A DNA stretch of 19,663 bases from a virus (taxonomy: Duplodnaviria > Heunggongvirae > Uroviricota > Caudoviricetes). Shown piece by piece: positions 1 to 18,602 of this stretch. The notes under the pieces were generated by a model. It did no database searches and was not told where the DNA came from. It saw nothing but the letters and a program-made list of their open reading frames with translations. The stretch covers positions 1 to 19,663 of the IMG/VR virus record IMGVR_UViG_2695420792_000006. One strand, written 5' to 3'. Position 1 is the stretch's first letter. Each line of letters begins with the position of its first letter. A program made the position numbers and the translations under genes.

Positions 1-1287
1 TCAGAGTCTGGCTCTATGGGGCATGTATGGGACACTCTCCGTCAACTGCTTATTGAGTAGTTCTATTTGCCCGATATTGTTATCTTTCATCCATGCTCCG
101 TAAACGTTGAATACCATTTGTGCATTTGCATGGCCCATTTGGTTTGCTATGAAGCTTGGATTCGCTCCTGCCGATAATGCCCAACAGGCATAAGTATGCC
201 TGGACTGATAGGCTTTTCTGTGCCGCAGTCCTGCTCGCCTTAATGCAGATGCCCAGGAATCTCTGATGGAATCTGCTTTATAGTGGTGACCGACTTGCTG
301 GCATTTTTTCACCAGTTGCGGATTAAAAACAAACGTGCATTCATGGCGTGCAGTGCGACCGAACTCCCGAAGCTTGACGTCAATTTGATACTGAGGGCCA
401 AGTCTTGTCATTTCAGCCTGGCTTTTCAGGGCATCAACAGCTGGTTGAACAAGATGAATAACACGATCAGTTCCCGCTTCTGTTTTTGGTAGAGTGAACT
501 CCCCGAGTTTTGTATAATTACGACGGATAGTCATTGTTTTAGCTTTTAAATCAATATCCTCCCAAGCGAGAGATATTAGCTCACCGTGACGAATGCCTGT
601 GTATACTGCTAAGGACCACAGGTTTTTCGTTTGTTGATGGTGACAGGCATCAATAAAACGAATAAATTCGTCTCGTGTGAGCGGATCTGGTTCTGTTCTG
701 GATCTCTTTAATGGTGTCAGGCCGTTAAATGGGTTTGACACGATATAGCCGTTATCAGCCGCAAATTGAAACATTCCTGCAATTGTCGTCATGTAGTAAT
801 TAACCGTAACTACTGACCTCCCTTTAATCGGCGTTGTTTTTCCGTTAGAGAGATTATGATACCCGGTTAACAAATCTTTCCTGATAAACAGTAAATCTTC
901 CTTTGTTACCGACGAAGCAAGACGTTTTTCCCCTATGCGAGGAAGCATGTTTCTCACCACGGATTGATACCGACTGAATGCATTACTTCCTATCTCAATT
1001 TTCTTAAGGTCCAACCATTTTTCCGAAAGTGCCTTAACGGTTATCTCTCTTTTTCCCAGACCAAAGTGTTTCAGGTTAGGGGAATTAGGGAACTGCGCGG
1101 CGTAGTCGAAACTCCCCATTCTGATTGCAAAACAAACGGAAGTGCGAAGTTCACCAGCGATCTTCCGGTTTTTGGCTGTGTCAGGAACACCGAGGTTTTC
1201 TCTGACACGTTTGCCATTATAGTGAAACCATATACGGAGTGATCCTCCATGGTTTTCAACGCCTGTCGGGTATGATGCGTTACTCAT
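1..1287 (-). CDS. int: Phage tyrosine integrase (site-specific recombinase)
   Basis: 428-aa ORF ending exactly at the window edge. C-terminal region has the R...HxxR...Y pattern typical of tyrosine recombinases (RHGELISLAWEDI, HDLRHTYA-like SRHTYACWALSAG, final YMPH). Sits next to an excisionase-like gene as in lambdoid int-xis modules. Confidence 0.88.
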   Translation of the reverse strand: MSNASYPTGVENHGGSLRIWFHYNGKRVRENLGVPDTAKNRKIAGELRTSVCFAIRMGSFDYAAQFPNSPNLKHFGLGKREITVKALSEKWLDLKKIEIGSNAFSRYQSVVRNMLPRIGEKRLASSVTKEDLLFIRKDLLTGYHNLSNGKTTPIKGRSVVTVNYYMTTIAGMFQFAADNGYIVSNPFNGLTPLKRSRTEPDPLTRDEFIRFIDACHHQQTKNLWSLAVYTGIRHGELISLAWEDIDLKAKTMTIRRNYTKLGEFTLPKTEAGTDRVIHLVQPAVDALKSQAEMTRLGPQYQIDVKLREFGRTARHECTFVFNPQLVKKCQQVGHHYKADSIRDSWASALRRAGLRHRKAYQSRHTYACWALSAGANPSFIANQMGHANAQMVFNVYGAWMKDNNIGQIELLNKQLTESVPYMPHRARL

Positions 1288-1320
1288 TAAACCTCCCAGA
1301 CGTCCAGGAGCATTAACAGG

Positions 1321-1575
1321 TTAACCGGAACTTGCATTTTTGGCACCTGGTTGTTTCTGGTTTTCGATCCATCGCATAATTTCTTCGATGTTGTACAGGC
1401 ATTCACTGTAATGCCCAGGATCACCTTCTACAGCGTAATGGCGGTATTCTTTTCCCTGCATCCATGACTTTCTTCTGGCCCGCTCGATGGTGCCGGGCTT
1501 TAGCCCTGTTGATGCAATAAGGACTCTCTCCGTACACCATTTGCTGGGGGTTATCTGATAGATGATTGTCTGCAT
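1321..1575 (-). CDS. Excisionase-like small DNA-binding protein (Xis/YdaQ-like)
   Basis: 84-aa ORF immediately upstream of int on the same strand with a 33-bp gap. Size, position and basic character fit a lambdoid Xis; the assignment is by context and recollection, not alignment. Confidence 0.55.
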   Translation of the reverse strand: MQTIIYQITPSKWCTERVLIASTGLKPGTIERARRKSWMQGKEYRHYAVEGDPGHYSECLYNIEEIMRWIENQKQPGAKNASSG

Positions 1576-1618
1576 GCCAACCTCATAAAACTTTCATCCA
1601 CGGCAGTGGCACCACACT

Positions 1619-1735
1619 TCAAACATTCGCTTCACATCTTCTGTACAACACGGTGTTGTTTATGCAGCGAACAATTTTTACCGGGTAACCGGCACTGTCG
1701 GTATACAGTTGTCCCTGATTAATCAGAGCGAACAT
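1619..1735 (-). CDS. Small hypothetical protein (38 aa)
   Basis: Internal ATG (complement of 1733-1735) of the 79-aa track ORF, preceded by a GGAGA Shine-Dalgarno at 6-nt spacing. The longer 79-aa version overlaps the upstream gene. Confidence 0.3.
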   Translation of the reverse strand: MFALINQGQLYTDSAGYPVKIVRCINNTVLYRRCEANV

Positions 1736-1766
1736 TTTTTCTCCTGCTCTCTGAATAGTGAGAACT

Positions 1767-2150
1767 TCAGAGCCGTATGTTTGTAGCGGGTTCAATGCTG
1801 ATAATTTCTGCTGAGATAAGCATCCCGGCAAGCCAGAGTTCTCCGGACAGGTCTTCATCCTGGCATATCAGTTCGCCAATATTAATGGTGGCCATGATAT
1901 CCGTTTCCCCTGTGCGCTCATCCAGGGCTTCTTCATAAGGCAGCGTTGCGTACAGGCTTTCAATAGCGCAATTGATAACATCCAGTCCGGTCAGATTGCC
2001 GCCGACAGTAACTTCGAATGTTTCGCGGTATTCCCATAGTCCGAAAGTTAATCGAACGGTTTGTTTTGCCATGCGTCCGCACGACGTCAGATTCGGGTCA
2101 TAGTTCATTATTTGCGGTTGAGTATTCTGGTTGTTCATCTGATTTTCCAT
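1767..2150 (-). CDS. Hypothetical acidic protein (start uncertain)
   Basis: Track ORF 1767..2210 overlaps the 3' end of the SPFH gene. I favour the internal ATG at 2150 (MENQ...), which lies just after a hairpin at 2154-2170. Start codon is not resolved and no family is recognised. Confidence 0.4.
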   Translation of the reverse strand: MENQMNNQNTQPQIMNYDPNLTSCGRMAKQTVRLTFGLWEYRETFEVTVGGNLTGLDVINCAIESLYATLPYEEALDERTGETDIMATINIGELICQDEDLSGELWLAGMLISAEIISIEPATNIRL

Positions 2151-2178
2151 TAACCCGGCGGTTTGCCGGGCGTGTAAG

Positions 2179-3006
2179 TTATTTAATCTGGATAAATGGT
2201 GTATTGGCACCGCTGGTCATGTATTGCGGCAGAGTACCGTTCCACTTGTTGATGGCTTCCAGCTCCATGACGCCAGGGTTCTGGCGCAGAGCTTCACCGC
2301 GTAAACGAATAGCATCGGCCTCGGCCTGGGCTTTTGTGCGAATCGCATCTGCCTGTCCGGCAGCTTCCGCGCGCAACATGTTAGCTTCCGCTTCGCGCTG
2401 TTTTACTTCCTGTTCGCGTTGCAGGGTTTTCTGGTTCGCCGTGACTTTGGCATTAATGCTGTCGATAACGGTTGGCGGGTACTCCGGCTTACCCACATAT
2501 GAGAGACTCATTACCTGAATACCGATGGGCGTCATTTCTGCCTGAATGTCTTTAAGAGCTGCATCCAGTAGTTCAGACTTCCCGCCGTCGATAAATTTGT
2601 CAGTGGTCATTTTGCTGGCCAGTCGATTGAGTGCGTCGGCGATCTTCTGGCGCAGGTCAGTATCGGTAATGTCATCCACGCCTTTGCGGTAGGTCTGAAA
2701 CACCGTGGTAACTTTGGATGGATCAACTTTGTAGGCAACACCGATGTGATAGCCAATGGTTGTGCCGTCACTCATCTGGAAGCTGAACGGCTCATCGTAG
2801 GTCTTCATTTGTTTGAAGGTTGGGAAGATGTAAACTTCAGTGTTCCATCCCGTCCAGTAGCGCCCAACACCGACCACTTCACCGACGCCTTTATCGTCGC
2901 CAAGTTTGTTTACTTTGATGCCCACATTACCAGGCTCAACGCGATCGCAACCGACAAGGCCAATGGTCGGCAGAACAAGGGCTAAAGCAAAAAGTAATTT
3001 TTTCAT
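2179..3006 (-). CDS. SPFH/band-7 (prohibitin/HflKC/YqiK-like) lipoprotein
   Basis: 275 aa. N-terminal signal peptide with lipobox LVGC. C-terminal Ala/Glu-rich coiled coil (QREAEANMLRAEAAGQADAIRTKAQAEADAIRLRGEALRQNPGVMELEAINKWNGTLP) is characteristic of SPFH-family proteins. Start codon overlaps the stop of the upstream small membrane gene. Confidence 0.8.
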   Translation of the reverse strand: MKKLLFALALVLPTIGLVGCDRVEPGNVGIKVNKLGDDKGVGEVVGVGRYWTGWNTEVYIFPTFKQMKTYDEPFSFQMSDGTTIGYHIGVAYKVDPSKVTTVFQTYRKGVDDITDTDLRQKIADALNRLASKMTTDKFIDGGKSELLDAALKDIQAEMTPIGIQVMSLSYVGKPEYPPTVIDSINAKVTANQKTLQREQEVKQREAEANMLRAEAAGQADAIRTKAQAEADAIRLRGEALRQNPGVMELEAINKWNGTLPQYMTSGANTPFIQIK

Positions 3007-3191
3007 CTTTTATCCTTAGAAAAAGAAAGACCCTTATAAATGGCATAAATGCAGGGCGGGGTCAGACACGCCAGAGCAAAGCCAGAAATCACTGCTACCG
3101 TATCCTTCATTGATATGAGGGCCGGAACGATTAATCCGTAAATACATGTGATAATTGCCAGTGATATAACTATTCTGAAATAAATGTTCAT
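3003..3191 (-). CDS. Small 2-TM membrane protein, translationally coupled to the SPFH gene
   Basis: 62 aa with two hydrophobic helices (IVISLAIITCIYGLIVPALI and AVISGFALACLTPPCIYAIY). AGGAGG Shine-Dalgarno 3 nt upstream of the ATG. 4-nt overlap with the SPFH start. Confidence 0.55.
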   Translation of the reverse strand: MNIYFRIVISLAIITCIYGLIVPALISMKDTVAVISGFALACLTPPCIYAIYKGLSFSKDKR

Positions 3192-3251
3192 GGTCCTCCT
3201 GATGTATGCGGCTTGCCTTATTTAATTGCGTCATGGTTAATTTCGTTTACG

Positions 3252-3644
3252 TCAGAATGGTTTTGTTGCCATCAGTTCGTAATATCCGGCGCTCCATGTG
3301 TCATATTTTCTGAACCATTTTTCTGTATACTGTTTCCTGGCGATGAGTCTGCGCAGTCGTCTGATTGTTCGCTGGTGTGCGCGGGTATACTCTGTGGTTG
3401 ATTCTCCACGTTTCCATATCTCATTCCCGTTGAAGATAAAACGCTTGTCAGGATAGCGTTGCCGGAATCCTGAACGTTCAAAAGCGCGGGTGGTCATAAA
3501 GAATGCCAGGTAACGAATTGCCGTTTTTCGGGTGAGGCATTTTTTTGTTCTTCCGTGGCGTGTTACAAAAAATAACGGGCCGACGGGTGTATCATGTTTC
3601 TGTAATGCCTGGTCAATGGCGCTGGCGGTGCGGTTGTCGATCAT
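3252..3644 (-). CDS. Hypothetical basic protein (Arg/Lys-rich, possible nucleic-acid binding)
   Basis: 130-aa ORF in the leftward early operon, rich in basic residues (RTIRRLRRLIARKQY). No family recognised. Confidence 0.5.
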   Translation of the reverse strand: MIDNRTASAIDQALQKHDTPVGPLFFVTRHGRTKKCLTRKTAIRYLAFFMTTRAFERSGFRQRYPDKRFIFNGNEIWKRGESTTEYTRAHQRTIRRLRRLIARKQYTEKWFRKYDTWSAGYYELMATKPF

Positions 3645-3830
3645 TTCTTTATTTCTCCCGAATAACGTTCATGACTCATTACTTCCCAGTTCCGGCCGTC
3701 GCCTTTCGATAACAGCCGCCAGCAACGGTTAACCTTCAGACTGAGATATCCGGTGCGCTGTATCCGATGCGGAAATATCCGTCGGCATCGGTACAACAAC
3801 AGGACCTGCAATGCCTGCCGGTGGATCCGC

Positions 3831-4046
3831 TCAGGAATGCGTGTTGCTGTTAATGCCACCGGTTTCCTCCTGAGCAGGTGCTGTTATCTGATACCCCGCT
3901 CTTTCTGCCAGCCGTATGAATGTATCCATGCTGGCAATCAGCTCGCCATCGCGGACTTTGCAGACACCTGTGACTTGGCCATTTTCAATTGTCATAACGA
4001 TCTGCACTTTTTCGCGCACAACAGATACAGGGGATAAATTAGCCAT
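3831..4046 (-). CDS. Hypothetical small protein
   Basis: 71-aa ORF in the same orientation as the early-left operon, with coding-like composition. No family recognised. Confidence 0.45.
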   Translation of the reverse strand: MANLSPVSVVREKVQIVMTIENGQVTGVCKVRDGELIASMDTFIRLAERAGYQITAPAQEETGGINSNTHS

Positions 4047-4171
4047 CAGTTAATTCCTCCACTGGTATATTTTTCTTTCGCGTAATCAATAACCTCTTGA
4101 AAAAGGTTGTCTATAATTAACTTTCCGGTTTCAGTCAGGTATTCAGTATGTTGATTAATCCCGATAGCATT

Positions 4172-4405
4172 CTAGTATGCAGTGTGGATTTCGGTTTCAC
4201 CCTCCACCCGGCCCAATTCACCACGGGTAATACCTTCGAAGCGTAACAGCAACTGGTTTATAAACTGTTCAGTTATTTCTATAGTCGCAATGTTCCCATC
4301 CGGAAGGTCAACAATAAGCAGATTACCACCTGTTTTACGTTTTATTCGATGGAGTGCCGCAACAGCTATACGGCGACGATATGTATTAATGGGTTCATAT
4401 GCCAT
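4172..4405 (-). CDS. Hypothetical small protein
   Basis: 77-aa ORF in the early-left operon. No family recognised. Confidence 0.45.
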   Translation of the reverse strand: MAYEPINTYRRRIAVAALHRIKRKTGGNLLIVDLPDGNIATIEITEQFINQLLLRFEGITRGELGRVEGETEIHTAY

Positions 4406-4604
4406 TTGTTATTTCCCGTATGCTTTACGCAGAAATAAGCAGGCAATATGCATGTAATTTTCACCGTGTTGTGCAATAAGACAGGCTGTTTTGTGTGATG
4501 TCTTATGTTTTATAAAAGTCATAATAAAGGCTCCAGTGGATTAAGTGTGTGATAATCCCCGGCGATTAAGCCGTAATATATTGTTCAGCGATAATATGTT
4601 TTAT

Positions 4605-4805
4605 TTAACTGGATAGTTCTTTTTCAGTTGCTGCTTCAGCATAGCAACGTGCAAATTCAAGAACTTCATCACCTGTTCTTTTTATTGCATCGTTGTCTGA
4701 CATTTGTAATACGACAACTGCGCATAATAAATCATGGATATTGTTTGCAAAGGAATCCGGTGCCAGGCATAAGCCTTCATACTTATCATGGATATTGCCA
4801 GTCAT
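4605..4805 (-). CDS. Hypothetical small protein (66 aa)
   Basis: Internal ATG (MTGNIHDKYEG...) with an AAGGAG Shine-Dalgarno, 5 nt downstream of the stop of the tandem-HTH gene. The longer track ORF (to 4847) would overlap that gene. Confidence 0.45.
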   Translation of the reverse strand: MTGNIHDKYEGLCLAPDSFANNIHDLLCAVVVLQMSDNDAIKRTGDEVLEFARCYAEAATEKELSS

Positions 4806-4810
4806 TGTTG

Positions 4811-5482
4811 CTACTCCTTTGCTTCTGATTTTCCCGTTAACAACCACACCAGGTCACAATTAAGCGCACTGGCCAGTGGTACTATCTGATCAGCAGGAAC
4901 TTCACAGATGCCGCATTCCCAGTCGTTTATGGGGTCACTGTAGGTATGAATCATGCGGGCAAGATCAGCTTCAGTTAAGCCCAGTTTTTTACGGGCGCTT
5001 TTGATGCGTGCGCCAATACTTTCCACATGGACTTCAGGCGCATTTACGCGAATAGCTGACTCGCTGTTTTTTTCACTCAGCAGAGAAAGCGGATCGCATC
5101 CCAGGACGTTTGCCAGGGGGATAAGCATGCTGATGGTTGGTTCGTACTCTCCGCTCTCCCATTGCAGAATAATCTCTTCGTCAAGATCGAGTAGTCTGGC
5201 CAGTTCGGTGGTCGTCAAGCCGCAGGCTTCACGTTGGGTACGGATTTTTCCAAAAAAGTGACTATGCGAAACCATAGCTTTTGCCTCACATAGTTTTTCT
5301 GCAAAAATTGATGCAGTTTCTTCTGTTTTTTGCAGGGAACGCATCAGGCATCTGATTGCATTATAAACCCTCTCACTTTCTGCTCCGTTTTCTGACATGT
5401 AGGAATAGATCATTCCAAGCAGCGAGCCGCCTTCTTGTATTTGTGCTGCAATTTCATCCATCACCTTAACTGCATGCTTCAT
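4811..5482 (-). CDS. Tandem HTH (XRE-type) DNA-binding protein with unknown N-terminal domain; first gene of the pL-like operon
   Basis: 223 aa. Two XRE-like helix-turn-helix segments (TTTELARLLDLDEEIILQWESGEYEPT and LTEADLARMIHTYSDPINDWECGICEVPADQI). AGGAGG Shine-Dalgarno 4 nt upstream. A consensus sigma70-like promoter lies immediately upstream. Confidence 0.7.
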   Translation of the reverse strand: MKHAVKVMDEIAAQIQEGGSLLGMIYSYMSENGAESERVYNAIRCLMRSLQKTEETASIFAEKLCEAKAMVSHSHFFGKIRTQREACGLTTTELARLLDLDEEIILQWESGEYEPTISMLIPLANVLGCDPLSLLSEKNSESAIRVNAPEVHVESIGARIKSARKKLGLTEADLARMIHTYSDPINDWECGICEVPADQIVPLASALNCDLVWLLTGKSEAKE

Positions 5483-5507
5483 ATGAGCCTCCTGTTGTTT
5501 TAATTTT

Positions 5508-5536
5508 ACAATAGCTAAAGCGTTTGGTTATGTCAA
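5508..5536 (-). promoter_or_regulatory. pL-like promoter (-35 TTGACA, 17-bp spacer, -10 TATTGT) with overlapping operator-like motif
   Basis: Minus-strand reading gives TTGACA(17 nt)TATTGT upstream of the 223-aa gene. The 13-mer TCAATCGCTATAG (5533-5545) overlaps the -35 and recurs at 6448-6460 beside the cro-like promoter. Confidence 0.5.
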
Positions 5537-5658
5537 TCGCTATAGCTATGCATTTTGAGCAGCAAAGAACAGATTATGAGAGAAATGAGACGATACGTAG
5601 GGAGTTGAGATACAGGAAAGTAGAGCAGCTGCGCAATACAGCTGCCGGTGATGTTGAC

Positions 5659-6363
5659 TTATCCGACCCTGTTATACTGGATTGACTGATGAATGAGAAC
5701 TTTCCCCATTATGAATAGATGTTCTTCAGCTGATTCACTTATAAACCATTCCTTGTAGGCCGGATTGTCTGATATAACAGCAAGTTGCATCCCTTGCATT
5801 TGCAGGCGTTTGATATGGAAGGTGTGCCCAAAAATAAAAACATAGATACCGTCAGTTTCAAAATTTCTGACGGATACGTCGACAAACACCTGATCTCCTG
5901 CACACAGAGTAGGAGCCATGCTGTCGCCATCAACTGTTATCATCTTTATGATATTTGCTGGCCTGCTACAGAACAGACGTCTTGCGGCGTCATGTGAAAA
6001 TTCTATAGCATGGACCGTTTCTGCAAAATCTGAAACAAGGAATGTTCCTGGTCCCGCGCTGGCAGCGATATCCAGGACTTCCACACGAAAAATATCCTTA
6101 TCATTTTCCAGCGGGGAATATGATACCTGTGGTGTCGGATTGCAGGATGTGCTTTCTTCTGGGGTCATAGGACCAACACCGTACGATAGCCACTCGGGGC
6201 GCACGTTCAGGGTATTGGCTATCTCCACAACTTTCCTGGAGCCTGTGGCACCATTAACCAGTTTATTTACGCTCGATTGAGCCATGCCAACCTCTCTGGC
6301 CAGTTTTCCCTGCGAGTATCCGCGGATAGTCATAGCTAACTGTAGCCTGTCTGAAAAGCTCAT
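5659..6363 (-). CDS. cI-like prophage repressor (HTH_XRE + S24 LexA-like peptidase domain)
   Basis: N-terminal HTH (YSQGKLAREVGMAQSSVNKLVNG) and C-terminal S24-like region with the GDSM serine motif and a downstream lysine (VDGDSMAPT ... HIKRL). Start set at the ATG with an AGGAGG Shine-Dalgarno at 6368-6373 rather than the longer track ORF. Divergent from a cro-like gene. Confidence 0.85.
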   Translation of the reverse strand: MSFSDRLQLAMTIRGYSQGKLAREVGMAQSSVNKLVNGATGSRKVVEIANTLNVRPEWLSYGVGPMTPEESTSCNPTPQVSYSPLENDKDIFRVEVLDIAASAGPGTFLVSDFAETVHAIEFSHDAARRLFCSRPANIIKMITVDGDSMAPTLCAGDQVFVDVSVRNFETDGIYVFIFGHTFHIKRLQMQGMQLAVISDNPAYKEWFISESAEEHLFIMGKVLIHQSIQYNRVG

Positions 6364-6387
6364 AAGTCCTCCTTTTTCTGCCCTTTT

Positions 6388-6416
6388 AGTGTATCGCCTT
6401 AGCGATATATACACAA
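6388..6416 (-). promoter_or_regulatory. pRM-like promoter for the repressor (-35 TTGTGT, 17 bp, -10 TACACT) overlapping a palindromic operator
   Basis: Read on the minus strand. The palindrome TATCGCcttaGCGATA (6392-6407) lies in the spacer. Confidence 0.4.
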
Positions 6417-6432
6417 ACCGCTTTTCCGCACA

Positions 6433-6461
6433 TTGTAATCGCTTTGATCAATCGCTATAGT
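6433..6461 (+). promoter_or_regulatory. pR-like promoter for the cro-like gene (-35 TTGTAA, 17 bp, -10 TATAGT) with AATCGCT operator repeats in the spacer
   Basis: TTGTAA at 6433-6438, 17-nt spacer, TATAGT at 6456-6461, about 25 nt upstream of the cro-like ATG. Direct repeats AATCGCT occur at 6437-6443 and 6450-6456. Confidence 0.45.
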
Positions 6462-6486
6462 GAATGGAATCAGGTTGGAGGTCGAT

Positions 6487-6750
6487 ATGAAAAATGAAGG
6501 TATAGCCAAGGCTGTAGATATTGCGGGAAGCCAGATTGCTCTGGCTAGGCGTTGTGGTCGCGCGCAGTCAACAATTTGCGACTGGCTGAATGGGAAGAAA
6601 AAAATTTCTCCTGAATTTGTTCCGTCTCTGGTTAAGGCGGTCGATGGGAAAGTCCAGGCGTATGAATTTCGTCCTGATCTACCGGAGCTTTTCCCACACC
6701 CAAGCTTAGCGCACACAGAAGATGGAGTGTGCGAAGGAGATAAACAGTGA
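6487..6750 (+). CDS. Cro/YdaS-like HTH regulator
   Basis: ATG at 6487 with a GGAGG Shine-Dalgarno at 5-nt spacing. HTH segment (IAGSQIALARRCGRAQSTICDWLNG). Divergent from the cI-like repressor, the classic immunity-region layout. Confidence 0.7.
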   Translation: MKNEGIAKAVDIAGSQIALARRCGRAQSTICDWLNGKKKISPEFVPSLVKAVDGKVQAYEFRPDLPELFPHPSLAHTEDGVCEGDKQ

Positions 6751-7454
6751 ATACAGCAATTTTTACCGACAAAGCATCTATGACCAGCGTTGAGATTGCT
6801 GAGTTGGTTGGTAAGCGCCATGACAATGTAAAACGCACTATTGAAACATTAGCCAAAGGTGGTGTTGTCCGGTCTCCTCAAATTGAGGTTTCCGAAAGAA
6901 TCAATAACTTAGGGTTTAAAGTTCAACACGAGCATTATCTGTTTGAAGGCGAACAAGGCAAACGCGACAGCATTATTGTTGTCGCACAGCTTTGCCCTGA
7001 ATTCACCGCCCGCCTGGTAGACCGCTGGCGTGAACTGGAAGAACAGATCCGTAAGCCAATGAGCGAAATCGAAATGGTTGCCGCGATGGCGCTCGAGGCT
7101 GTTCGCCAACAAAGACGTCTTGAGCATGTGGAAGAGAAAGTCATCCACGTTACCGAAACAGTCGAGCAAATCAAAAGAGGCACCATACGCGATGGTTATG
7201 CAGGCTACCGTCAGCTGGTGGCGAAAACGGGTATGTCAGATGCGAAATGTCGCAATCTGGTGAACGCATATCAGATCCCTACTGACACCCATGAATTTAT
7301 GACGCCGGATGGATTGTTGTCTCGTCGCGCGATTGTTGCAGTAGAACCCTTCATGTCTGCTTTTCATCGCATGATGAGTGAAGCAGAACCACGGGGTACT
7401 CGCTGGTATCACCCGAAGATGGGGCTGTTCCAGGCGCTGGGCTGGCAGGGGTAA
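6747..7454 (+). CDS. Rha-family phage regulatory protein
   Basis: N-terminal Rha-type motif (MTSVEIAELVGKRHDNVKRTIETL). GTG at 6747 has an AAGGAG Shine-Dalgarno at 7-nt spacing and overlaps the cro-like stop. An alternative ATG start lies at 6780. Confidence 0.65.
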   Translation: MNTAIFTDKASMTSVEIAELVGKRHDNVKRTIETLAKGGVVRSPQIEVSERINNLGFKVQHEHYLFEGEQGKRDSIIVVAQLCPEFTARLVDRWRELEEQIRKPMSEIEMVAAMALEAVRQQRRLEHVEEKVIHVTETVEQIKRGTIRDGYAGYRQLVAKTGMSDAKCRNLVNAYQIPTDTHEFMTPDGLLSRRAIVAVEPFMSAFHRMMSEAEPRGTRWYHPKMGLFQALGWQG

Positions 7455-7473
7455 TTATGCTCACAGGTAACAC

Positions 7474-7653
7474 ATGCAAGTACTCAATCGCTGGTTCCGT
7501 GATGGAAGAGGGCGTCGCGTCCACGTTATACGCTGGGAGCCTGAAACACAGCGGGTTATTTACCTGCGTGATGGTTATCCGGATGAGTGCTTCAGCCCAC
7601 TATGGTTGTTTCGTCGTGATTTTGTTGAGTGCGAAGCGCCACCAGCATATTGA
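7474..7653 (+). CDS. Small hypothetical protein (59 aa) in an alternate frame to the track ORF
   Basis: My translation of ATG 7474 gives MQVLNRWFRDGRGRRVHVIRWEPETQRVIYLRDGYPDECFSPLWLFRRDFVECEAPPAY, which looks protein-like. It falls below the track's length cut-off. The overlapping N-terminal 157 aa of the 340-aa track ORF look non-native. Confidence 0.35.
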   Translation: MQVLNRWFRDGRGRRVHVIRWEPETQRVIYLRDGYPDECFSPLWLFRRDFVECEAPPAY

Positions 7654-7927
7654 TTCTGCAATTCCGGGACGTTACACTGCTCAGGCACCTTATAAAGCGG
7701 GTGCCGGGATTGGCGTCCTGAAACTTACAGAAGAGCATAACCGCGCTCATGCGGTTTTTTCATGTCATGAGCATTGCTACGCCCAAATTATGGTGGGGCG
7801 TGCAGGGGCATCGCAAGATGCGCCGGGTTCTTCTGTGACCGGTTACGCCAACCCTGTACGTCTCACCACCTCTGTGATTGGCGTCCCATGTGGTGAGTGT
7901 TTTAAACTCACAGAAGGGGCTGTCATC

Positions 7928-8479
7928 ATGACTACTCTCCCAACCATCGCTCAACCTGAACTTTGCATTGTTGCTGGCAAAGTGGTTACTTCTTCTCTGT
8001 CTGTTGCCTGTTATTTCCGCAAACAACACAAAAATGTCATTCAAAAAATTGCGTCTCTTGAATGCTCTGCCGAATTTACTGAGCTGAATTTTCAGCCCAG
8101 TGAATACACCGACGCATCAGGCCGCAAACTCCCTTGTTACCAAATCACCCGCGACGGTTTTGCATTTCTTGCTATGGGTTTCACGGGTAAACGTGCTGCC
8201 CGGTTCAAAGAAGCATACATCAATGCCTTTAACCAGATGGAGAGGTGCTTATCAGGAGTTGGTGCGGCTGATATGCCATCTGTCGCACAAAACGCCAGAG
8301 GCGTATACCTGCATTTGCGAGAAATCCACCAAATCTGGACAAGCCAGCTTTATCCCATGCTTAAGGCTGTTGAATCTCCGCTGGCTAGCAAACTGTACGA
8401 CCGTGTAGGTGATGCTGTTTTTGGTGCTGCACTTGTTGATTCCAGACTGAACGGTTCTGACAAGGAGGCGCACCCATGA
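7928..8479 (+). CDS. Rha-family phage regulatory protein (second copy)
   Basis: Rha-type core from MTTLPTIAQPELCIVAGKVVTSSLSVACYFRKQHKNVIQKI ... TRDGFAFLAMGFTGKRAARFKEAYINAFNQME. ATG at 7928 preceded by GAAGGGG. The upstream 7457-7927 part of the track ORF is probably not part of this protein. Confidence 0.6.
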   Translation: MTTLPTIAQPELCIVAGKVVTSSLSVACYFRKQHKNVIQKIASLECSAEFTELNFQPSEYTDASGRKLPCYQITRDGFAFLAMGFTGKRAARFKEAYINAFNQMERCLSGVGAADMPSVAQNARGVYLHLREIHQIWTSQLYPMLKAVESPLASKLYDRVGDAVFGAALVDSRLNGSDKEAHP

Positions 8480-8709
8480 TTCGCCGCGTCGTTAGTTCCC
8501 TGTATCACCGATACAACCACTGCCCCCGTGTGGGGCAGTGGTTCACCACCAGCAACGGTCACGTTCTGCGGGTTTGCCTGGTCAATACAGAAAGCCAGAA
8601 GGTTGTCTGCCAGGTTCAGGGATGTACTCATACCCTGAGTTATCCGCTGGTGGCGTTTCAGTCCGGAAAAATGTTTAAACGCCTGGGAGGTGGCTATGCG
8701 TCCGTCTGA
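8476..8709 (+). CDS. Small Cys/His-containing hypothetical protein
   Basis: 77 aa. Perfect AAGGAGG Shine-Dalgarno at 7-nt spacing. ATGA overlap with the preceding Rha gene stop. Confidence 0.45.
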   Translation: MIRRVVSSLYHRYNHCPRVGQWFTTSNGHVLRVCLVNTESQKVVCQVQGCTHTLSYPLVAFQSGKMFKRLGGGYASV

Positions 8710-9589
8710 TCTTCTGCTCGATTTTGGACATCCGGTTGCTTATTACCCTGGGCTCGTTAAATACATGGGAAGTCCGCACGCTGTTATTTTCTTTGGTCAG
8801 ATTTTTTACTGGCAGGATAAAGCACATGCAGCGGAAGGCGTACATAAAACGCGTGAAGAGATACAACACGAAACAGGACTTACATTTGAACAACAGGCTG
8901 TAGCGCGTAAGTATCTTGTGTCCAGAGGCATTTTGGTTGAAACCAACAAGCGTCTTGAGCACAAAATGTTCTACCGTATAGATTGTGAGCGCCTTAATGA
9001 AATTATCAATGAAAACAATCAGTTTTCCCGAAATGGGGAAACCCGTTTTCGGGAAACTGTAAAACCCAATTTCGCGGAGGAGGGAAAGCCTTCACCGCGG
9101 ACACGGGAAACCCCTCGCCGCGGAGAAGGGAAAACCAATTTCGATCTTACAGAGAATACAACAGAGATTACTTCAGAGAATACTACAGAGAGTAAAAACA
9201 CTATTGGCGCATCCGCTGACGCGTCTGCACCAGCACGTTCTGCCCGACAGGAATATTCACCGGAATTTGAACAGGCCTGGCAGGAATATCCCAAACGTGC
9301 TGGTGGTAATTCCAAGTCAGCAGCCTTCAAAGCCTGGAAAGCCCGTATCAGGGAAGGTGTGACACCCGAAACCATGCTCAACGGTGTGAAACGCTATGCC
9401 GCCTGGGTGCGTGTCTCAGGAAATACCGGCACCCAGTTCGTGAAGCAGGCATCGACGTTCTTTGGCCCCGATCGGCACTTTGACGAATCCTGGCAACAGT
9501 CAGCAGCTCCCGGAGGTGGGCGGGGCAAAAGCCTCCCGATCTCGGGATTCAGTGAACAGGACTACGGCTCAACGAACTTCAACTGGTGA
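8696..9589 (+). CDS. Phage replication initiation protein (O-like replisome organiser) carrying internal iteron-like repeats
   Basis: ATG at 8696 with GGAGG 5 nt upstream. Lies directly upstream of the DnaC-like and DnaB-like genes. Contains a repeat-rich internal DNA segment (9023-9190), as the lambda O gene contains ori. Confidence 0.6.
   Translation: MRPSDLLLDFGHPVAYYPGLVKYMGSPHAVIFFGQIFYWQDKAHAAEGVHKTREEIQHETGLTFEQQAVARKYLVSRGILVETNKRLEHKMFYRIDCERLNEIINENNQFSRNGETRFRETVKPNFAEEGKPSPRTRETPRRGEGKTNFDLTENTTEITSENTTESKNTIGASADASAPARSARQEYSPEFEQAWQEYPKRAGGNSKSAAFKAWKARIREGVTPETMLNGVKRYAAWVRVSGNTGTQFVKQASTFFGPDRHFDESWQQSAAPGGGRGKSLPISGFSEQDYGSTNFNW
9023..9190. repeat. Iteron-like repeats (CGGGAAA/GGGAAAnC, about 6 copies) followed by an AT-rich tandem 24-bp repeat; candidate origin of replication
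   Basis: Copies at about 9023-9030 (inverted), 9035-9044, 9050-9057, 9082-9088, 9104-9111 and 9128-9135. Then cagagaatacaacagag / cagagaatactacagag at 9150-9190. Confidence 0.45.
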
Positions 9590-9606
9590 TTTTGTGGGGT
9601 GTGAAA

Positions 9607-10497
9607 ATGATTAATTTCCTGAACAAACAACACATGCAACACGACAAAGCGCAATTACTCAACCGCAGTGCGGAGCTGGAGGAGGAGATGCAGTTTGCCC
9701 GTGCCGGGAAGCGTCCGTGGCGCTGTGAGCACTGGCTGGCAAGCGATGAGACTGCAGAGTGTGAGAAGCACGGAAAATATACTCGTCTGGTGTTGAAAGG
9801 GCCAGATATTCGCGGAGAAACCATCAAACGGGTATCCGGATGTCCGCGCTGCATCGCAGAAGAACTGGATCACGTGCATGACGAATTACGCGCCCTGAAG
9901 GTTCGTGAATTACTCGATCAGGCCGGTATTGCCCGCCGCTTTGAGAACTGCGAGTTTGAGAACTATCAGGCTGTGAATGCCGGGGCTCAGCGGAATCTTG
10001 ATGCCTGCCAGCGTTATGTCGATGCCTGGAAGGATCACCTCGCGGCGGGTACCAGCATGATCATGATTGGCAATTGCGGTACCGGGAAAAATCACCTGGC
10101 TGTATCAATGGCAAAAAATATTATTCGCCACCACCTGGCGACCGTCGAAATTACGGATGTTATGCGACTGACCCGCGCTGTGAAAAATACATGGCGTCAC
10201 AATTCTGAACGCACTGAAGATGAAGTTATTGACCATTTTGTATCACTGGACCTGCTCATCATTGATGAAGTCGGTGTTCAGTTTGGCACGCCTGCCGAGA
10301 TAACCATCCTGCAGGAAATCATCAACGCGCGTTACGAAAGTATTCTGCCAACAATTCTGATCAGCAACCTGACGTTTGACCAGCTTAAGGAGTCCATTGG
10401 TGAGCGAATTGTAGATCGCGTTACTGACGGCGGGCGTAACCGCCTGGTGTTTGGCTGGGAGAGCTACCGGGCAAATATCGGAGGTGTTGCCGCATGA
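9607..10497 (+). CDS. DnaC-like helicase loader (AAA+ ATPase, IstB/DnaC family) with N-terminal Cys4 zinc-binding region
   Basis: Walker A motif GNCGTGKNHLAVS, Walker B motif LLIIDEVG, and an N-terminal four-Cys cluster (CEHW...CEKHG...CPRC). Start may be the GTG at 9586 (track) or the ATG at 9607. Confidence 0.8.
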   Translation: MINFLNKQHMQHDKAQLLNRSAELEEEMQFARAGKRPWRCEHWLASDETAECEKHGKYTRLVLKGPDIRGETIKRVSGCPRCIAEELDHVHDELRALKVRELLDQAGIARRFENCEFENYQAVNAGAQRNLDACQRYVDAWKDHLAAGTSMIMIGNCGTGKNHLAVSMAKNIIRHHLATVEITDVMRLTRAVKNTWRHNSERTEDEVIDHFVSLDLLIIDEVGVQFGTPAEITILQEIINARYESILPTILISNLTFDQLKESIGERIVDRVTDGGRNRLVFGWESYRANIGGVAA

Positions 10498-11894
10498 CCA
10501 GCCAGAACAACCCGGCATGGCGTAACGATGACCTGGAAGGTGCGGTGATTGGCGCGTTTTTTCTGCGTGGGGCTGATCCGGAAGTGATGGATATTCTGGC
10601 CACGCTTCCGGCGGATGTATTTTTCGTGCGTCAGTACCGGGATATTTACGCGGGGATTTGCAGACAGGCCCGCGTATCCGGCGTCATTGACCCCGTGCTG
10701 CTGTGCAATGAGATGCCGGAACTTGCCCCGGTGATTACCGACACCGGGCGCAAAACCTGGGTGAAGTCTTCACTGGAGCACTATGTTGCAGCGCTGCGAC
10801 GCAATGCCGCACTGCGCGATGCAGAAAAAACACTGACTGAAGCATTACAGAATTTACGTGATGCACATACCTGCGAAGCGGCAGAAGATGCCCTGAAGGA
10901 TGCGCAGAACATGATGGCCTCACTGTCGACCGGAAAGGGCGTCATTCAGCCGGTTCACATTGATGATGTCCTTCCGGAAGTGGTGGGCCGTGTTGAATGC
11001 CGGAATCAGGGACTGGAGAAATCCAGGGCGCTGATGACCGGTATTGATGAACTGGACGCAAAAACGGGCGGTATGGAGCCCGGAGACCTGGTATTCATTG
11101 CCGCCCGTCCTTCGATGGGGAAAACAGAACTTGCGCTGGACATCATCGACAAGGTGACTGAGCAGGGGCATGGCGTGCTTCTGTTCACCATGGAGATGGC
11201 GAACATCCAGATTGGTGAACGTATGGTGTCTGCAGCAGGGGGAATGCCGGTATCCCGTCTTAAGTCTGTTGCCCGTTTTGAAGATGAAGACTGGGCGCGT
11301 TTCTCACAGGGCGTGGGACGAATGACGGGGCGTAATATCTGGATGGTGGACCAGGCAAATCTGACCATTGATGAGATATGTGCAACCACGAGGTACCACC
11401 GGATGAAGCATCCGGAAACGGCGCTGGTGGTGGTCGATTACCTCGGCCTGATTAAAACCCGCAGCACGGGGCGTCACGACCTTGCGGTGGGGGAAATCTC
11501 AAAGGGACTTAAAAGCCTGGCAAAATCCGGCGGTTTTCCGCTGATTGCTCTGAGCCAGCTCTCCCGCGGCGTGGAATCCAGACCCAATAAACGTCCCATG
11601 AACTCAGACCTGAAAAACTCCGGGGAAATCGAGGCTGATGCCGACATCATTCTGATGCTTTACAGGGATGAGGTGTATAACCCGGATACACAGGCGAGAG
11701 GCATAGCAGAAATCAACATCACGAAACAGCGTAATGGCACGCTCGGGACCATTTACCGGCGTTTTCATAACGGACATTTTCTGCCTGTGGACCAGGAGAG
11801 TGCCCGGGTTCTTTCCACACCCATGACGCCGGGCAATCCGCGCAGATACAGCAATAACCGCATGTCGGGCAGTAAAGCGGAGCGTTTATTTTGA
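10494..11894 (+). CDS. DnaB-family replicative DNA helicase
   Basis: DnaB-type motifs GIDELDAKTGGMEPGDLVFIAARPSMGKTELALDI (Walker A), VVVDYLGLI, and LSQLSR(G)VE. ATGA overlap with the loader gene. Confidence 0.85.
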   Translation: MTSQNNPAWRNDDLEGAVIGAFFLRGADPEVMDILATLPADVFFVRQYRDIYAGICRQARVSGVIDPVLLCNEMPELAPVITDTGRKTWVKSSLEHYVAALRRNAALRDAEKTLTEALQNLRDAHTCEAAEDALKDAQNMMASLSTGKGVIQPVHIDDVLPEVVGRVECRNQGLEKSRALMTGIDELDAKTGGMEPGDLVFIAARPSMGKTELALDIIDKVTEQGHGVLLFTMEMANIQIGERMVSAAGGMPVSRLKSVARFEDEDWARFSQGVGRMTGRNIWMVDQANLTIDEICATTRYHRMKHPETALVVVDYLGLIKTRSTGRHDLAVGEISKGLKSLAKSGGFPLIALSQLSRGVESRPNKRPMNSDLKNSGEIEADADIILMLYRDEVYNPDTQARGIAEINITKQRNGTLGTIYRRFHNGHFLPVDQESARVLSTPMTPGNPRRYSNNRMSGSKAERLF

Positions 11895-12148
11895 ATAACA
11901 GAACAGCCACTGTTTCACCGGAACAACTTCGTCGCCAGGCGCAGGAGATGCTTCGTTGTGCTGAACAGATGGAAAAAATGAGCGTGGCAAAGGATACGCT
12001 CCGCAAGCAGCTTACTCCGGCGCTTCGTGATCTGCTGCAGGCAAAACACCGCACACAAAAGGCGGTGGATGAGCTGGTGGATTGCGTGGCGGAACTGGAA
12101 GGCAAGGTAAGCCAGTTTGAAACTCTGGTGAAGGAGTTTACTGCGTGA
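11891..12148 (+). CDS. Small coiled-coil hypothetical protein (start uncertain, track start is TTG)
   Basis: 85-aa ORF overlapping the helicase stop. Charged, helical-looking sequence. No family recognised. Confidence 0.35.
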   Translation: MNNRTATVSPEQLRRQAQEMLRCAEQMEKMSVAKDTLRKQLTPALRDLLQAKHRTQKAVDELVDCVAELEGKVSQFETLVKEFTA

Positions 12149-12193
12149 TGGCTGAATTTTTTCTCCTGTGTTCATGCAATATCGTTCGCTGAG

Positions 12194-13189
12194 GTGACCG
12201 TGAGAGCATTGTTGACTCCTGAAATTGCCCCGCGAATGGGGATTGTATTGTTCAGACCCGGTTCAGAGCTGATGCCCCTGTTTATGCAGGGGCGTGTCCT
12301 GCTGGAGCCTGAGCCGGAACGTTATTCATCTTTCGCCAGTGGTGCCGTTCCGGCGGCATCACAACCGCTGGCGGATGATCCTGCCGTTCGGGCCGTGTTC
12401 CGCAATGAGGCAGTGATCCGTCGTGCTGGTGGCGTGGAATGTCTTGAAAGCTGGTTACTTCGTGAAAAAGGCTGCCAGTGGCTTCATTCCGACTGGCACA
12501 GCGAGAACATGACCACAATGCGACACGCGCCGGGCGCAATCCGTCTGTGCTGGCACTGCGATAACCAGCTGCGCGATCAGTTCACGGAACGGCTGGAATC
12601 AATGGCAACGGATAACTGTGCCCGCTGGGTGTTGTCTGTTGTGCGTCGGGATCTCGGTTTTGATGACAGTCACGTTGTGACAATGCCGGAACTGTGCTGG
12701 TGGCTGGTTCGTAATAATCTGGCGGATGCCTTACCGGAAAGCGCAGCCCGTAAGGCACTGAGATTACCGAATCCTGTTGTGCCGTCTGTCACCCGGGAAA
12801 GTGACCTTGTGCCTTCGGTTCCTGCCACCAGCATCATCCAGGATAAGGCGAAAAAGGTGCTGGCGCTGAAAGTGGATCCGGAGTCGCCGGAGTCTTTTAT
12901 GTTACGCCCAAAACGTCGCCGCTGGGTTAATGAAAAGTACACGCGCTGGGTTAAGACACAGCCGTGCGCATGTTGTGGAAAGCCTGCTGATGATCCCCAC
13001 CACCTGATAGGCCACGGTCAGGGGGGAATGGGTACAAAAGCGCATGACCTCTTTGTGTTGCCTTTGTGCAGAAAGCATCACGACGAGCTGCATGCGGATA
13101 CCGTGGCATTTGAAGAGAAGTATGGCTCCCAGCTGGAGCTGATATTTCGTTTTATCGATCGCGCGCTGGCAACTGGCGTGCTGGCCTGA
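12194..13189 (+). CDS. DUF968-like phage protein with C-terminal HNH-like zinc-finger motif
   Basis: C-terminus CACCGKPADDPHHLIGHGQGGMGTKAHDLFVLPLCRKHHDELH matches an HNH-type CxxC...HH...CxxxHH pattern. Lies immediately upstream of Q, as ydfU-like genes do in E. coli cryptic prophages (recollection). Track start is GTG; the true start is unresolved. Confidence 0.55.
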   Translation: MTVRALLTPEIAPRMGIVLFRPGSELMPLFMQGRVLLEPEPERYSSFASGAVPAASQPLADDPAVRAVFRNEAVIRRAGGVECLESWLLREKGCQWLHSDWHSENMTTMRHAPGAIRLCWHCDNQLRDQFTERLESMATDNCARWVLSVVRRDLGFDDSHVVTMPELCWWLVRNNLADALPESAARKALRLPNPVVPSVTRESDLVPSVPATSIIQDKAKKVLALKVDPESPESFMLRPKRRRWVNEKYTRWVKTQPCACCGKPADDPHHLIGHGQGGMGTKAHDLFVLPLCRKHHDELHADTVAFEEKYGSQLELIFRFIDRALATGVLA

Positions 13190-13206
13190 TTTTGTGGATA
13201 AAGTTT

Positions 13207-13572
13207 ATGCGTGATATTCAGATGGTTCTGGATCGTTGGGGTGCATGGGCGGCGAGTGATAGTTCTGGGGTAGACTATTCGCCTATAGCTGCTGGGTTTA
13301 AAGGGCTTCTTCCCTATACAAGCAAAACACGTCAGGCTTGTTCAGATAGTGATGCATTAATTATTGAAGGTTGTCTTGCTCGTCTAAAGCAAAAAAGACC
13401 TGAAGAACACTCGCTTCTTGTTGCCCATTACCTATACGGTATCTCTAAAAGAAAGCTCGCCAAAGCTCGTAAAAAGGATGAGAAACTAATACGCATTGAG
13501 ATACAGATGGCTGAGGGTTTTGTTGAAGGCTGTCTCTCAATGCTTGATCTTTGTCTGGAAATGGACCAATAG
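13207..13572 (+). CDS. Late-gene antiterminator Q (QuuD/phage 21-type Q family)
   Basis: MRDIQMVLDRWGAWAA...GFKGLLP...EGCLARLK...LEMD closely resembles the roughly 125-aa Q antiterminators of E. coli lambdoid prophages as I recall them. ATG at 13207 preferred over the TTG track start. Confidence 0.8.
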   Translation: MRDIQMVLDRWGAWAASDSSGVDYSPIAAGFKGLLPYTSKTRQACSDSDALIIEGCLARLKQKRPEEHSLLVAHYLYGISKRKLAKARKKDEKLIRIEIQMAEGFVEGCLSMLDLCLEMDQ

Positions 13573-13583
13573 ACTACCAGAAT

Positions 13584-13620
13584 AGAAACTGCCGCTCAGC
13601 TTTGCGGATCGGCAGTTTCT
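13584..13620. repeat. Perfect 11-bp inverted repeat (AGAAACTGCCG / CGGCAGTTTCT, 15-nt loop) between convergent genes
   Basis: Lies between the Q stop and the stop of the minus-strand 140-aa gene, whose 3' end it overlaps. No U-tract on either side. Confidence 0.5.
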
Positions 13621-14018: not shown

Positions 14019-14284
14019 TTTCGTTTTGAATTCTCCGCAATTGCCTCTTCAATGAGGGTTGTTAGCATTTTTCCCTTTTTACTTGGAACTTTTATTACTA
14101 GCGTCTTAGTCACTCCGGATTCTTCATCGTGATATCGGAATTCGAAGACTTTTGTAGGGAATAGTCGACGCCAAAGCAAGGCTGACGCTGAATAGCAAAA
14201 ACGACTAAAGGCAGGGATGATCATTATCACCCCAATCCAGAAGATCAGTTGTGCTATCTGCATGTTCAGTGTCACTTTTGTCAA
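14015..14284 (-). CDS. Cassette gene 2: small membrane protein (1-2 TM)
   Basis: 89 aa. Hydrophobic N-terminus (IAQLIFWIGVIMIIPAF) and a Lys-rich soluble tail. 4-nt overlaps with both neighbouring genes. Confidence 0.55.
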   Translation of the reverse strand: MTKVTLNMQIAQLIFWIGVIMIIPAFSRFCYSASALLWRRLFPTKVFEFRYHDEESGVTKTLVIKVPSKKGKMLTTLIEEAIAENSKRK

Positions 14285-16830: not shown

Positions 16831-16870
16831 GATTGCAGAATTAATTACGGACCGTTATTATCCGGCTCCC

Positions 16871-17123: not shown

Positions 17124-17136
17124 CACTTATTTTCCA

Positions 17137-18583: not shown

Positions 18584-18602
18584 CGGTTTATTAACCCGGA
18601 CG

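Follow-up and report, generated by a model that had tools for sequence, protein, structure and literature searches.

What does a phage gain from a lipoprotein of the SPFH/band-7 superfamily and from the tiny membrane protein encoded immediately ahead of it? SPFH proteins are universal membrane scaffolds, the clients of which are mostly unknown, and the question is raised by two genes in a 19,663-nt stretch of caudoviral DNA (IMG/VR record IMGVR_UViG_2695420792_000006, positions 1-19,663; hereafter the window, to which all coordinates refer unless another locus is named). The window spans the left arm, together with the early region, of a lambdoid prophage that has inserted beside yecN-cmoA at a DUF72 (yecE) gene, and it is 100% identical to the genome of Escherichia coli strain 22-250 across 18.4 kb. 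On its minus strand, the open reading frames (ORFs) at 3003-3191 and 2179-3006 overlap by 4 nt, precisely as an earlier sequence-only reading of the window had described them, and they lie where that reading had placed them, between xis and the immunity region. The two genes, encoding a 62-aa partner and a 275-aa SPFH lipoprotein, constitute a single conserved phage module: they are coupled, nearly always adjacent, and sometimes fused. We consider it about an even bet that the products are a periplasm-facing, lipid-anchored SPFH cage and a transmembrane (TM) hairpin, which are produced early in lytic growth as insulation for a patch of the inner membrane.

The assignment of the larger product to the SPFH/band-7 lipoproteins was upheld by profile searches, in which Band_7 (PF01145; 107.8 bits against a gathering cut-off of 23.6, E = 8.2e-31, residues 22-208) was the sole Pfam family detected and the 'lipoprotein' family PHROG 200 matched with E = 4.6e-114. 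As read from the sequence, the lipobox (MKKLLFALALVLPTIGLVG-C20) fits the pattern [LVI][ASTVI][GAS]C and is directly followed by Asp21; G19, C20, and D21 are each conserved at 90% or more in 22 enterobacterial homologues. An aspartate at position +2 is an inner-membrane retention (Lol-avoidance) signal in E. coli and the Enterobacterales. The AlphaFold2 (AF2) model consists of an SPFH alpha/beta core (strands 20-94), helices, a long helix (178-242), and a short helix. In a Foldseek search, the model aligned over its full length with HflC and HflK (7vhq), erlin1/2, prohibitin, and stomatin with E values of 1e-13 to 1e-11, and matched flotillin, QmcA, and the vault protein with weaker ones; a fold search of BFVD returned generic names only. 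The top structural matches, HflC and HflK, share 17-19% identity with the phage protein, and the model together with the Foldseek matches contains the elements present in cage-forming members, namely, the SPFH alpha/beta fold, the long coiled-coil helix, and the C-terminal cap segment. HflK and HflC were also the best solved or curated cellular matches at the sequence level (NCBIfam E values of 1e-5 and 6e-5; PDB HflK, E = 1.3e-3). Because the scores fall far under the NCBIfam equivalog cut-offs (HflC, 24.6 bits versus 134.4; HflK, 22.7 versus 159.4), the protein, as modelled, is a cage-type SPFH protein rather than an orthologue of either HflK or HflC. Some members of the family are labelled 'serine protease' or 'transposase' in GenBank (LC5678xx, AJ298298, KU682439, ON706965, MG845684); no protease or transposase domain is detectable in these mislabelled members, the only protease-named match being a weak one to PHROG 11227, and the two misleading labels, which are without support, are hereby corrected.

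The partner belongs to PHROG 1130 ('membrane protein'; E = 1.5e-23), whereas the window copy matches no Pfam family and has no name in any source searched. It contains two hydrophobic segments, with one lysine or arginine in the N-terminal tail, one in the loop, and four in the C-terminal tail, a distribution that predicts a topology with both termini in the cytoplasm (N-in/C-in); the annotators of Klebsiella phage Pylas independently recorded '2 TMDs N in C in' for the homologue. The predicted periplasmic turn of the window partner reads P23-A-L-I-S27-M-K-D-T, and the family turn motif is P-x-[LM]-[IV]-S-[AS]-x-x-[ST]...G, with P23 and S27 alone being nearly invariant in a 23-sequence alignment. 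This short inter-helix turn is the sole conserved feature of the partner. The ORF is a real gene conserved in relatives: its 189 nt and the 4-nt overlap are intact in 79 of 79 scorable close viral loci (relatives at least 97% identical, which served only the dN/dS and hairpin checks) that comprise 30 distinct DNA variants, and pN values of 0.04-0.11 against pS values of 0.20-0.29 indicate purifying selection. A profile of the partner alignment, run against a set of 5.8 billion proteins, retrieved 61 close small proteins without names, none of them a fusion, such a search being insensitive for a 60-aa hairpin. Matches of five of ten diverse partners to the Pfam family RseC_MucC (E = 0.03-0.4) were judged to reflect the compositional likeness of membrane hairpins.

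The junction between the two genes is tight. The SPFH start codon (ATG, 3006-3004) overlaps the partner stop codon (TGA, 3005-3003), and each gene is preceded by a ribosome-binding site, that of the SPFH gene lying within the end of the partner gene (Table 1). Across 11 related phages, the junction ranges from a 20-nt overlap (as scored) to a 2-nt gap, and in Erwinia phage Fifi051 the overlap is 70 nt by the annotated SPFH start. An exhaustive search for the SPFH protein among 1.84 billion cluster representatives yielded 3009 clusters at E <= 1e-3, of which the top 150 were scored for fusions; among the 107 scorable proteins, 75 have a lipobox and at least 15 are partner-SPFH fusions with an N-terminal hairpin extension. 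Fusion into a single reading frame concerns about a tenth of the distant representatives. The order in the fusions is hairpin (mostly with the motif), basic linker, signal-peptide-like helix, lipobox (recognisable in 11 of the 15), and SPFH domain, and the same arrangement is seen in the E. coli P1-type fusion P0030 (347 aa) and in a metagenome-assembled genome (L128, 3665-4846). Such fusions are evidence of the Rosetta-stone kind for a joint function of the two proteins, and the order of their parts demands a cytoplasmic C-terminus for the hairpin, in agreement with the charge-based topology. Several of them have no internal methionine, so the lipoprotein would be either released by signal peptidase II or kept anchored by three helices. 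In-frame fusions include P0151, P0156, P0159, P0164, P0173, P0175, P0193, P0198, and P0200.

Of 50,697 phage records, 641 gave a tblastn match to the SPFH family, and many of these belong to virulent phages. In 11 of 19 diverse phage loci, a partner of 50-100 aa with two helices and the turn motif is encoded directly upstream of the SPFH gene. Besides the window, the pair was found in the P2-like phage P88 (gp11/gp12), P1-like elements, Klebsiella phage Pylas (Pylas_028/029), the N4-type coliphage Jura (equivalent to N4 gp19/gp20), Erwinia phage Fifi051, Pseudomonas phage Ostro, Stenotrophomonas phage DLP6, Ruegeria phage RpAliso, Burkholderia phage phi1026b, and a bajarodcaudo virus. Virulent phages are represented as well, including N4, Pylas, Vequintavirinae, Ounavirinae (Felix-O1-like), and Bruynoghevirus, alongside temperate phages of Pseudomonas and Burkholderia. 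A hidden Markov model (HMM) of the partner, built from the family alignment and run on all 4047 ORFs of 61 loci, produced matches at 49 loci with E <= 6e-5, 38 of which had not been used in building the model; all matches are on the strand of the SPFH gene and within about 1 kb upstream of it, and none was found elsewhere among the 4047 ORFs at E <= 0.01. The partner is one to three small genes away from the SPFH gene in a Salmonella phage filed under Demerecviridae, a Klebsiella phage of the Vequintavirinae, Pseudomonas phage TL (the gp10 of which is annotated as similar to LUZ24 gp13), and Erwinia phage Roscha1. In P1-like phage-plasmids (L003, 3864-5897), the pair fills the variable slot between trnT and trnI-ban, which in reference P1 (L088, 13349-15009) holds plp, upl, and tciA-C (TerB-like); a gene of the TerB family is also present in the late region of the window. 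P1 plp and upl were ruled out as a version of the pair, plp encoding 125 aa on the opposite strand. In Staphylococcus Kayvirus (L095, 1166-2265), a distant, TM-anchored SPFH homologue, MbpS, is encoded after MbpV, a protein of 102 aa with one helix that is unrelated to the partner family, and mbpV/mbpS have the endolysin gene on one side and tgl on the other, a pairing and context unlike those in proteobacterial phages.

In bacterial genomes, the status of the module differs between lineages. It is present in 535 of 5426 complete E. coli genomes, at 424 chromosomal and 198 plasmid places, which are always prophages or P1-like plasmids, and the copies in Pseudomonas genomes are prophage-borne and lie about 500 nt past a cI-like repressor gene. 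In Dyella and other Rhodanobacteraceae (L101-L127 and L135; e.g., L101, 3005-4870), the pair occupies a syntenic chromosomal site flanked by a divergent operon for a BlaI-like repressor and a BlaR1-like M56 sensor and, usually, by ribonucleotide reductase genes (nrdAB) on the opposite side; these flanks recur in ten compared loci, and an adjacent hemerythrin gene in three only. The scan of genome contigs was queried with a single protein (P0153), and its sample is biased towards Rhodanobacteraceae. The setting hints that the copy in this family could be an envelope-stress-regulated cellular version of the module. The sequence-only description of the pair as accessory cargo thus holds insofar as it is non-core in E. 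coli, but falls short of a pan-phage module that is also carried by strictly virulent phages; the contrary possibility, that the pair is a core chromosomal operon, applies to Dyella and its relatives but not to E. coli.

The two genes were also compared between individual pairs. Between the window and P88, the mature SPFH parts are 96% identical and the partners 18%; between the window and DLP6, the corresponding values are 43% and 36%, so that partner identity is uncoupled from SPFH identity. At query positions 113-859, the DNA matches to P88 and P1-like elements lie wholly inside the SPFH gene; near-identical mature SPFH parts have therefore been recombined with differing 'partner + signal peptide' alleles. 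For the partner, hydrophobic helices and the turn seem to suffice.

We then asked under which control the pair is likely to stand. Within 60 nt upstream of it, no sigma-70-like promoter was found by a consensus scan, which may miss weak or non-sigma-70 signals. The best sigma-70-like promoter on the minus strand is situated just past the gene for the cI-like repressor (Table 1) and is likely a pL-type promoter that transcribes the pair; the terminator scan detected no minus-strand terminator-like site between the two. In P88, the pair is located between cox and a replication gene; in P1-like elements, between trnT and trnI-ban, a slot that in P1 comes after the C1-controlled Pban; and in N4, Pylas, and Fifi051, after the genes for the phage RNA polymerase. 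The position of the pair, among repressor-controlled early genes in temperate phages and in early/middle regions in virulent ones, and its presence in virulent phages suggest that it is expressed early in lytic growth. The marks that would define a 'moron', as the sequence-only reading framed the pair, are a promoter and a terminator of its own that permit expression from the repressed prophage; the consensus scans yielded no such promoter, and the hairpin past the SPFH gene is not a canonical terminator.

That hairpin (RNA strand GCCCGGC-AAACC-GCCGGGU) has seven pairs, including a terminal G-U, and in its 66-nt context folds with -15.4 kcal/mol (z = -2.7). The stem noticed earlier is accordingly real, but its loop is of 5 nt (GGTTT on the plus strand) and not 'ggtt'. 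The window hairpin is not followed by a U-tract and is not called by the terminator scan. The 80 close loci share the stem but differ in the loop (CAAACC, CAGGCC, CAGACC, TATTACACG), and the hairpin accompanies the SPFH gene also at loci with another downstream gene. Of the distant relatives checked, most have a stem-loop directly past the SPFH stop codon, followed by a U-tract in N4/Jura, Pylas, Fifi051, Roscha1, and phiCbK. The hairpin most plausibly marks the 3' boundary of the module, probably serving as a weak terminator or RNA-stabilising element in the window and as a true terminator in some relatives.

In the mechanism that we favour, the SPFH protein would be exported and lipidated at Cys20, with the aspartate at +2 keeping the product on the outer leaflet of the inner membrane. 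Given this retention and the start of the domain only two residues past the lipidated cysteine, the SPFH domain is predicted to lie flat on the membrane and to face the periplasm. Among the E. coli SPFH proteins, HflK/C alone is periplasm-facing, whereas the QmcA-YbbJ cage faces the cytoplasm (PMC13086221). The phage protein would oligomerise into a closed dome, as do HflK/C, prohibitin, erlin, and stomatin, and the N-in/C-in hairpin would show its conserved turn to the SPFH ring. Present at about 1:1, the hairpin could form a transmembrane palisade in trans, replacing the N-terminal anchor of other SPFH proteins, such that the two products would be, in effect, a split SPFH protein. The assembly would fence off a patch of the inner membrane early in lytic growth. 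We judge the most likely payoff to be protection or insulation of the inner membrane of the infected cell, which would remain sealed and energised, and/or the barring of superinfecting DNA. A payoff as a lysogen trait appears less likely, the occurrence of the module in strictly virulent phages making a function in lytic growth more probable than lysogenic conversion. In our ranking, membrane protection or exclusion is followed by modulation of FtsH, lysogenic conversion, and holin control, in this order. Superinfection exclusion, membrane stress sensing, and lysis control, which the sequence-only reading had put forward, are still conjecture. A more far-reaching version, which we regard as unlikely, is that a split periplasm-facing cage is deployed early by many phage lineages to seal the cell against superinfecting genomes or membrane-targeting abortive-infection effectors. 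If true, the pair would stand for a very widespread, as yet unrecognised class of modules with which phages protect membranes (by exclusion or anti-defence), and the Dyella pair beside the blaI/blaR1-like genes would be a domesticated envelope-stress version.

The closest known counterpart is N4 gp19-gp20, in which the same families (PHROG 1130 and PHROG 200) are encoded in the same order by overlapping genes, with a stem-loop past the second gene; the N4-type gp20 of phage Jura is 66% identical to the mature part of the window SPFH protein, and gp19 has the same turn motif. N4 differs in being virulent, in carrying the pair right behind the genes for RNA polymerase II, and in having a terminator with a U-tract. 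HflK/HflC resemble the phage protein in the SPFH1/2 domains, the long coiled-coil helix, the C-terminal cap segment, and the periplasm-facing orientation, which is inferred for the phage protein, but they are anchored by an N-terminal helix instead of a lipid and are encoded by two paralogues instead of one SPFH gene. Like the phage module, the SPFH-NfeD operons (QmcA-YbbJ, Staphylococcus aureus FloA-NfeD, Pyrococcus PH1511-PH1510) consist of adjacent, co-oriented genes for an SPFH protein and a membrane partner, and the co-transcribed small membrane partner is thought to aid oligomerisation (PMC13086221); the phage partner, by contrast, has neither the OB-fold (PF01957) nor similarity to NfeD and is encoded upstream rather than downstream. 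By analogy only, the pair can be compared with T4 Imm and Sp, HK97 gp15, and T5 Llp, which are early-made, small phage proteins of the inner membrane or facing the periplasm, but have no sequence or fold relationship to it. These proteins are early-expressed membrane or lipoprotein factors of superinfection exclusion.

Several observations weigh against the insulating cage. Neither the pair nor the two neighbouring genes have a match in PADLOC-DB v2 at E <= 0.1. The HMM did not find the partner family at the loci of phiCbK, Kayvirus, and the Halorubrum and Enterococcus phages: the neighbour of the SPFH gene encodes a 3-TM protein in phiCbK and the 1-TM MbpV in Kayvirus, and the SPFH proteins of the Halorubrum and Enterococcus phages are TM-anchored, which means that the hairpin is not obligatory for the SPFH family. 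Outside Enterobacterales, the +2 residue varies (S, T, D, G...), and the inner-membrane location is therefore not generalisable. The AF2 model describes a single subunit and is only moderately confident (pLDDT 74.8), its C-terminal tail being unreliable. Finally, Pasteurella multocida PM0222 (OAZ06802.1), an HflK/C-like protein of 25-35 kDa encoded in a lambda-like prophage and no more than a possible relative, differs in that it was reported in uninduced cultures and in outer-membrane vesicles (PMC9872710), which would point to expression in the lysogen and routing to the outer membrane.

The same Pasteurella protein is an argument for the view that the pair is lysogenic-conversion cargo, a true moron through which the resident prophage alters the host envelope, for instance by excluding other phages, conferring stress tolerance, or, by way of a TLR2-stimulating lipoprotein, contributing to virulence: when the Pasteurella protein was deleted, virulence was attenuated (PMC9872710). 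The PHROG category of the partner ('moron, auxiliary metabolic gene and host takeover') and the location of the pair in a mosaic accessory region, where its neighbours vary among relatives, are compatible with such a role. We nonetheless find it improbable, because the pair shows no sigma-70-like promoter in the 60 nt upstream and no canonical terminator, has no PADLOC match, lies within the repressor-controlled early operons of three temperate phage types, and is carried by many virulent phages. The last point also bears on an equally improbable explanation, in which the module mimics HflK/C and captures or displaces host FtsH on the periplasmic side, altering the turnover of its substrates (CII, CIII, Xis, sigma-32, LpxC) and hence biasing the lysis-lysogeny decision or providing more chaperones and membrane synthesis; virulent phages make no such decision. 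HflK and HflC are indeed both the best cellular sequence matches and the top structural ones, the predicted orientation of the phage protein equals theirs, and the lambdoid pair lies in the operon that in lambda holds cIII and Xis. In lambda, cIII is an FtsH inhibitor and Xis an FtsH substrate. Furthermore, the three best structural classes (HflK/C, prohibitin, and erlin) partner with proteolysis machinery (PMC13086221). Yet identity to HflK/C is low, the HflC score is a fraction of the equivalog cut-off, and the locus contains a single SPFH gene, that is, no K/C heterodimer.

A role in the timing of lysis, with the partner as a holin- or pinholin-like pore former that is restrained or organised by the SPFH ring, is more doubtful still. 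The size of the partner, its N-in/C-in two-helix topology, and its basic C-terminal tail resemble those of class II holins, two partners weakly match the Pfam family Phage_holin_3_6 (E = 0.044 and 0.21), and Kayvirus mbpS and the holin-like mbpV are flanked by the endolysin gene and tgl (PMC7150955). However, the holin matches are sub-threshold and confined to two of ten partners, MbpV does not belong to the partner family, and the pair occupies early regions of the window, P88, P1-like phages, and N4-like phages, away from any lysis cassette. Hardly credible, in turn, is an ordinary SPFH-NfeD operon with a truncated NfeD as the small gene, an idea suggested by the frequent operonic association of SPFH genes with nfeD (PMC13086221) and by the adjacent, membrane-embedded small product. 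None of ten diverse partners matched NfeD in Pfam at E <= 10, the partner had no PDB sequence match to YbbJ, and hhalign assigned a probability of 2% to the alignment of the partner profile with E. coli YbbJ, so the check for a truncated NfeD was negative and the partner is distinct from NfeD. In addition, 62 aa are too short for an OB-fold domain, the partner gene precedes the SPFH gene whereas the E. coli order is qmcA and then ybbJ, and the predicted orientation is periplasmic rather than cytoplasmic.

Literature searches turned up only annotation remarks and speculation on these proteins: we found no functional study of phage SPFH proteins, N4 gp19/gp20, or LUZ24 gp13, the one experimental paper being that on the Pasteurella protein, a possible relative (PMC9872710). 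Genome papers have noted the SPFH domain and speculated on it (PMC13239085; PMC7150955, for Kayvirus MbpS; PMC4936722), and the 2009 classification of prokaryotic SPFH proteins and the 2026 Pseudomonas survey mention neither phage nor lipoprotein-type members. The window copy is an ordinary member of a widespread, already annotated family; what is new is the conserved, sometimes fused, non-NfeD partner and the putative periplasmic topology. The module itself looks undescribed, as a variant of SPFH-partner operons. With a dedicated non-NfeD partner, occasional fusions, and shared occurrence in N4, P1-like, P2-like, and lambdoid (including Stx2) phages, the question of what the pair does becomes testable, the more so as these phages offer easy E. 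coli systems. Should the model prove wrong, the pair would be merely a routinely annotated set of accessory genes.

Table 1. Features of the module and its surroundings in the window (nucleotide positions unless marked aa)
Feature	Position	Strand	Remark
Integrase gene	1-1287	-	Order on minus strand
Excisionase gene	1321-1575	-	Order on minus strand
DUF4222 remnant	1619-1760	-	PGAP fragment, xis side of DUF5406
DUF5406 gene	1767-2138	-	Adjoins 3' end of SPFH gene
GC-rich stem-loop	2153-2171	-	8 nt past SPFH stop; 14 nt before PGAP start of DUF5406
SPFH/band-7 lipoprotein gene, 275 aa	2179-3006	-	Pfam Band_7 and PHROG 200
Signal peptide and lipobox LVGC of SPFH protein	aa 1-20		Followed by Asp21
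SPFH domain	aa 22-208
65-residue helix of SPFH protein	aa 178-242		Followed by KWNGxLP...PF tail
Cys20 codon of SPFH gene	2947-2949	-
ATGA overlap, partner stop/SPFH start	3003-3006	-	Translational coupling; sequence reading
AAGGA ribosome-binding site of SPFH gene	3013-3017	-	Within end of partner gene; sequence reading
Partner gene, 62 aa	3003-3191	-	ORF, PHROG 1130; two-helix membrane hairpin, predicted N-in/C-in
Shine-Dalgarno AGGAGG of partner gene	3195-3200	-	3 nt before ATG at 3191
PHROG 1886 gene	3252-3644	-	5' side of partner gene
ParE-like gene, 72 aa	3641-3859	-	Pfam ParE_like, E = 2.2e-16
71-aa ORF	3831-4046	-	Without Pfam family; overlaps ParE-like gene
Pseudogene	4046-4405	-	PGAP, internal stop
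Double helix-turn-helix (HTH) protein gene, 223 aa	4811-5482	-	Two tandem HTH_3 domains
Best sigma-70-like promoter, TTGACA-17-TATTGT	5508-5536	-	Just downstream of cI-like repressor gene
cI-type repressor gene	5659-6414	-	Peptidase_S24 and HTH domains

Several of the surrounding genes deserve mention in their own right. The ParE-like toxin gene overlaps both of its neighbours, the 71-aa ORF and the PHROG 1886 gene, and the 71-aa product could be its antitoxin, which would make the two a possible toxin-antitoxin pair in the same operon, just upstream of the SPFH module. The pseudogene and the DUF4222 fragment are signs of decay in the accessory region, and the SPFH pair between them is intact. 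The double-HTH gene is the first past the pL-like promoter, in the slot where lambda has N, and its product may be a second repressor, an anti-repressor, or another regulator. Among phages, Stx2 phages and phiP27 match the SPFH region most closely, and the late region of the window (approximately 13207-18416; L143, 14707-19916) has the layout of Stx-converting phages, with, in order, the Q antiterminator, a frameshifted DNA methyltransferase, two tRNAs (tRNA(CAT), 16871-16946; tRNA-Arg(TCT), 17047-17123), and a SASA/NanS-type esterase; the usual position of stx is held by the TerB-family gene and a DUF3927 gene instead.

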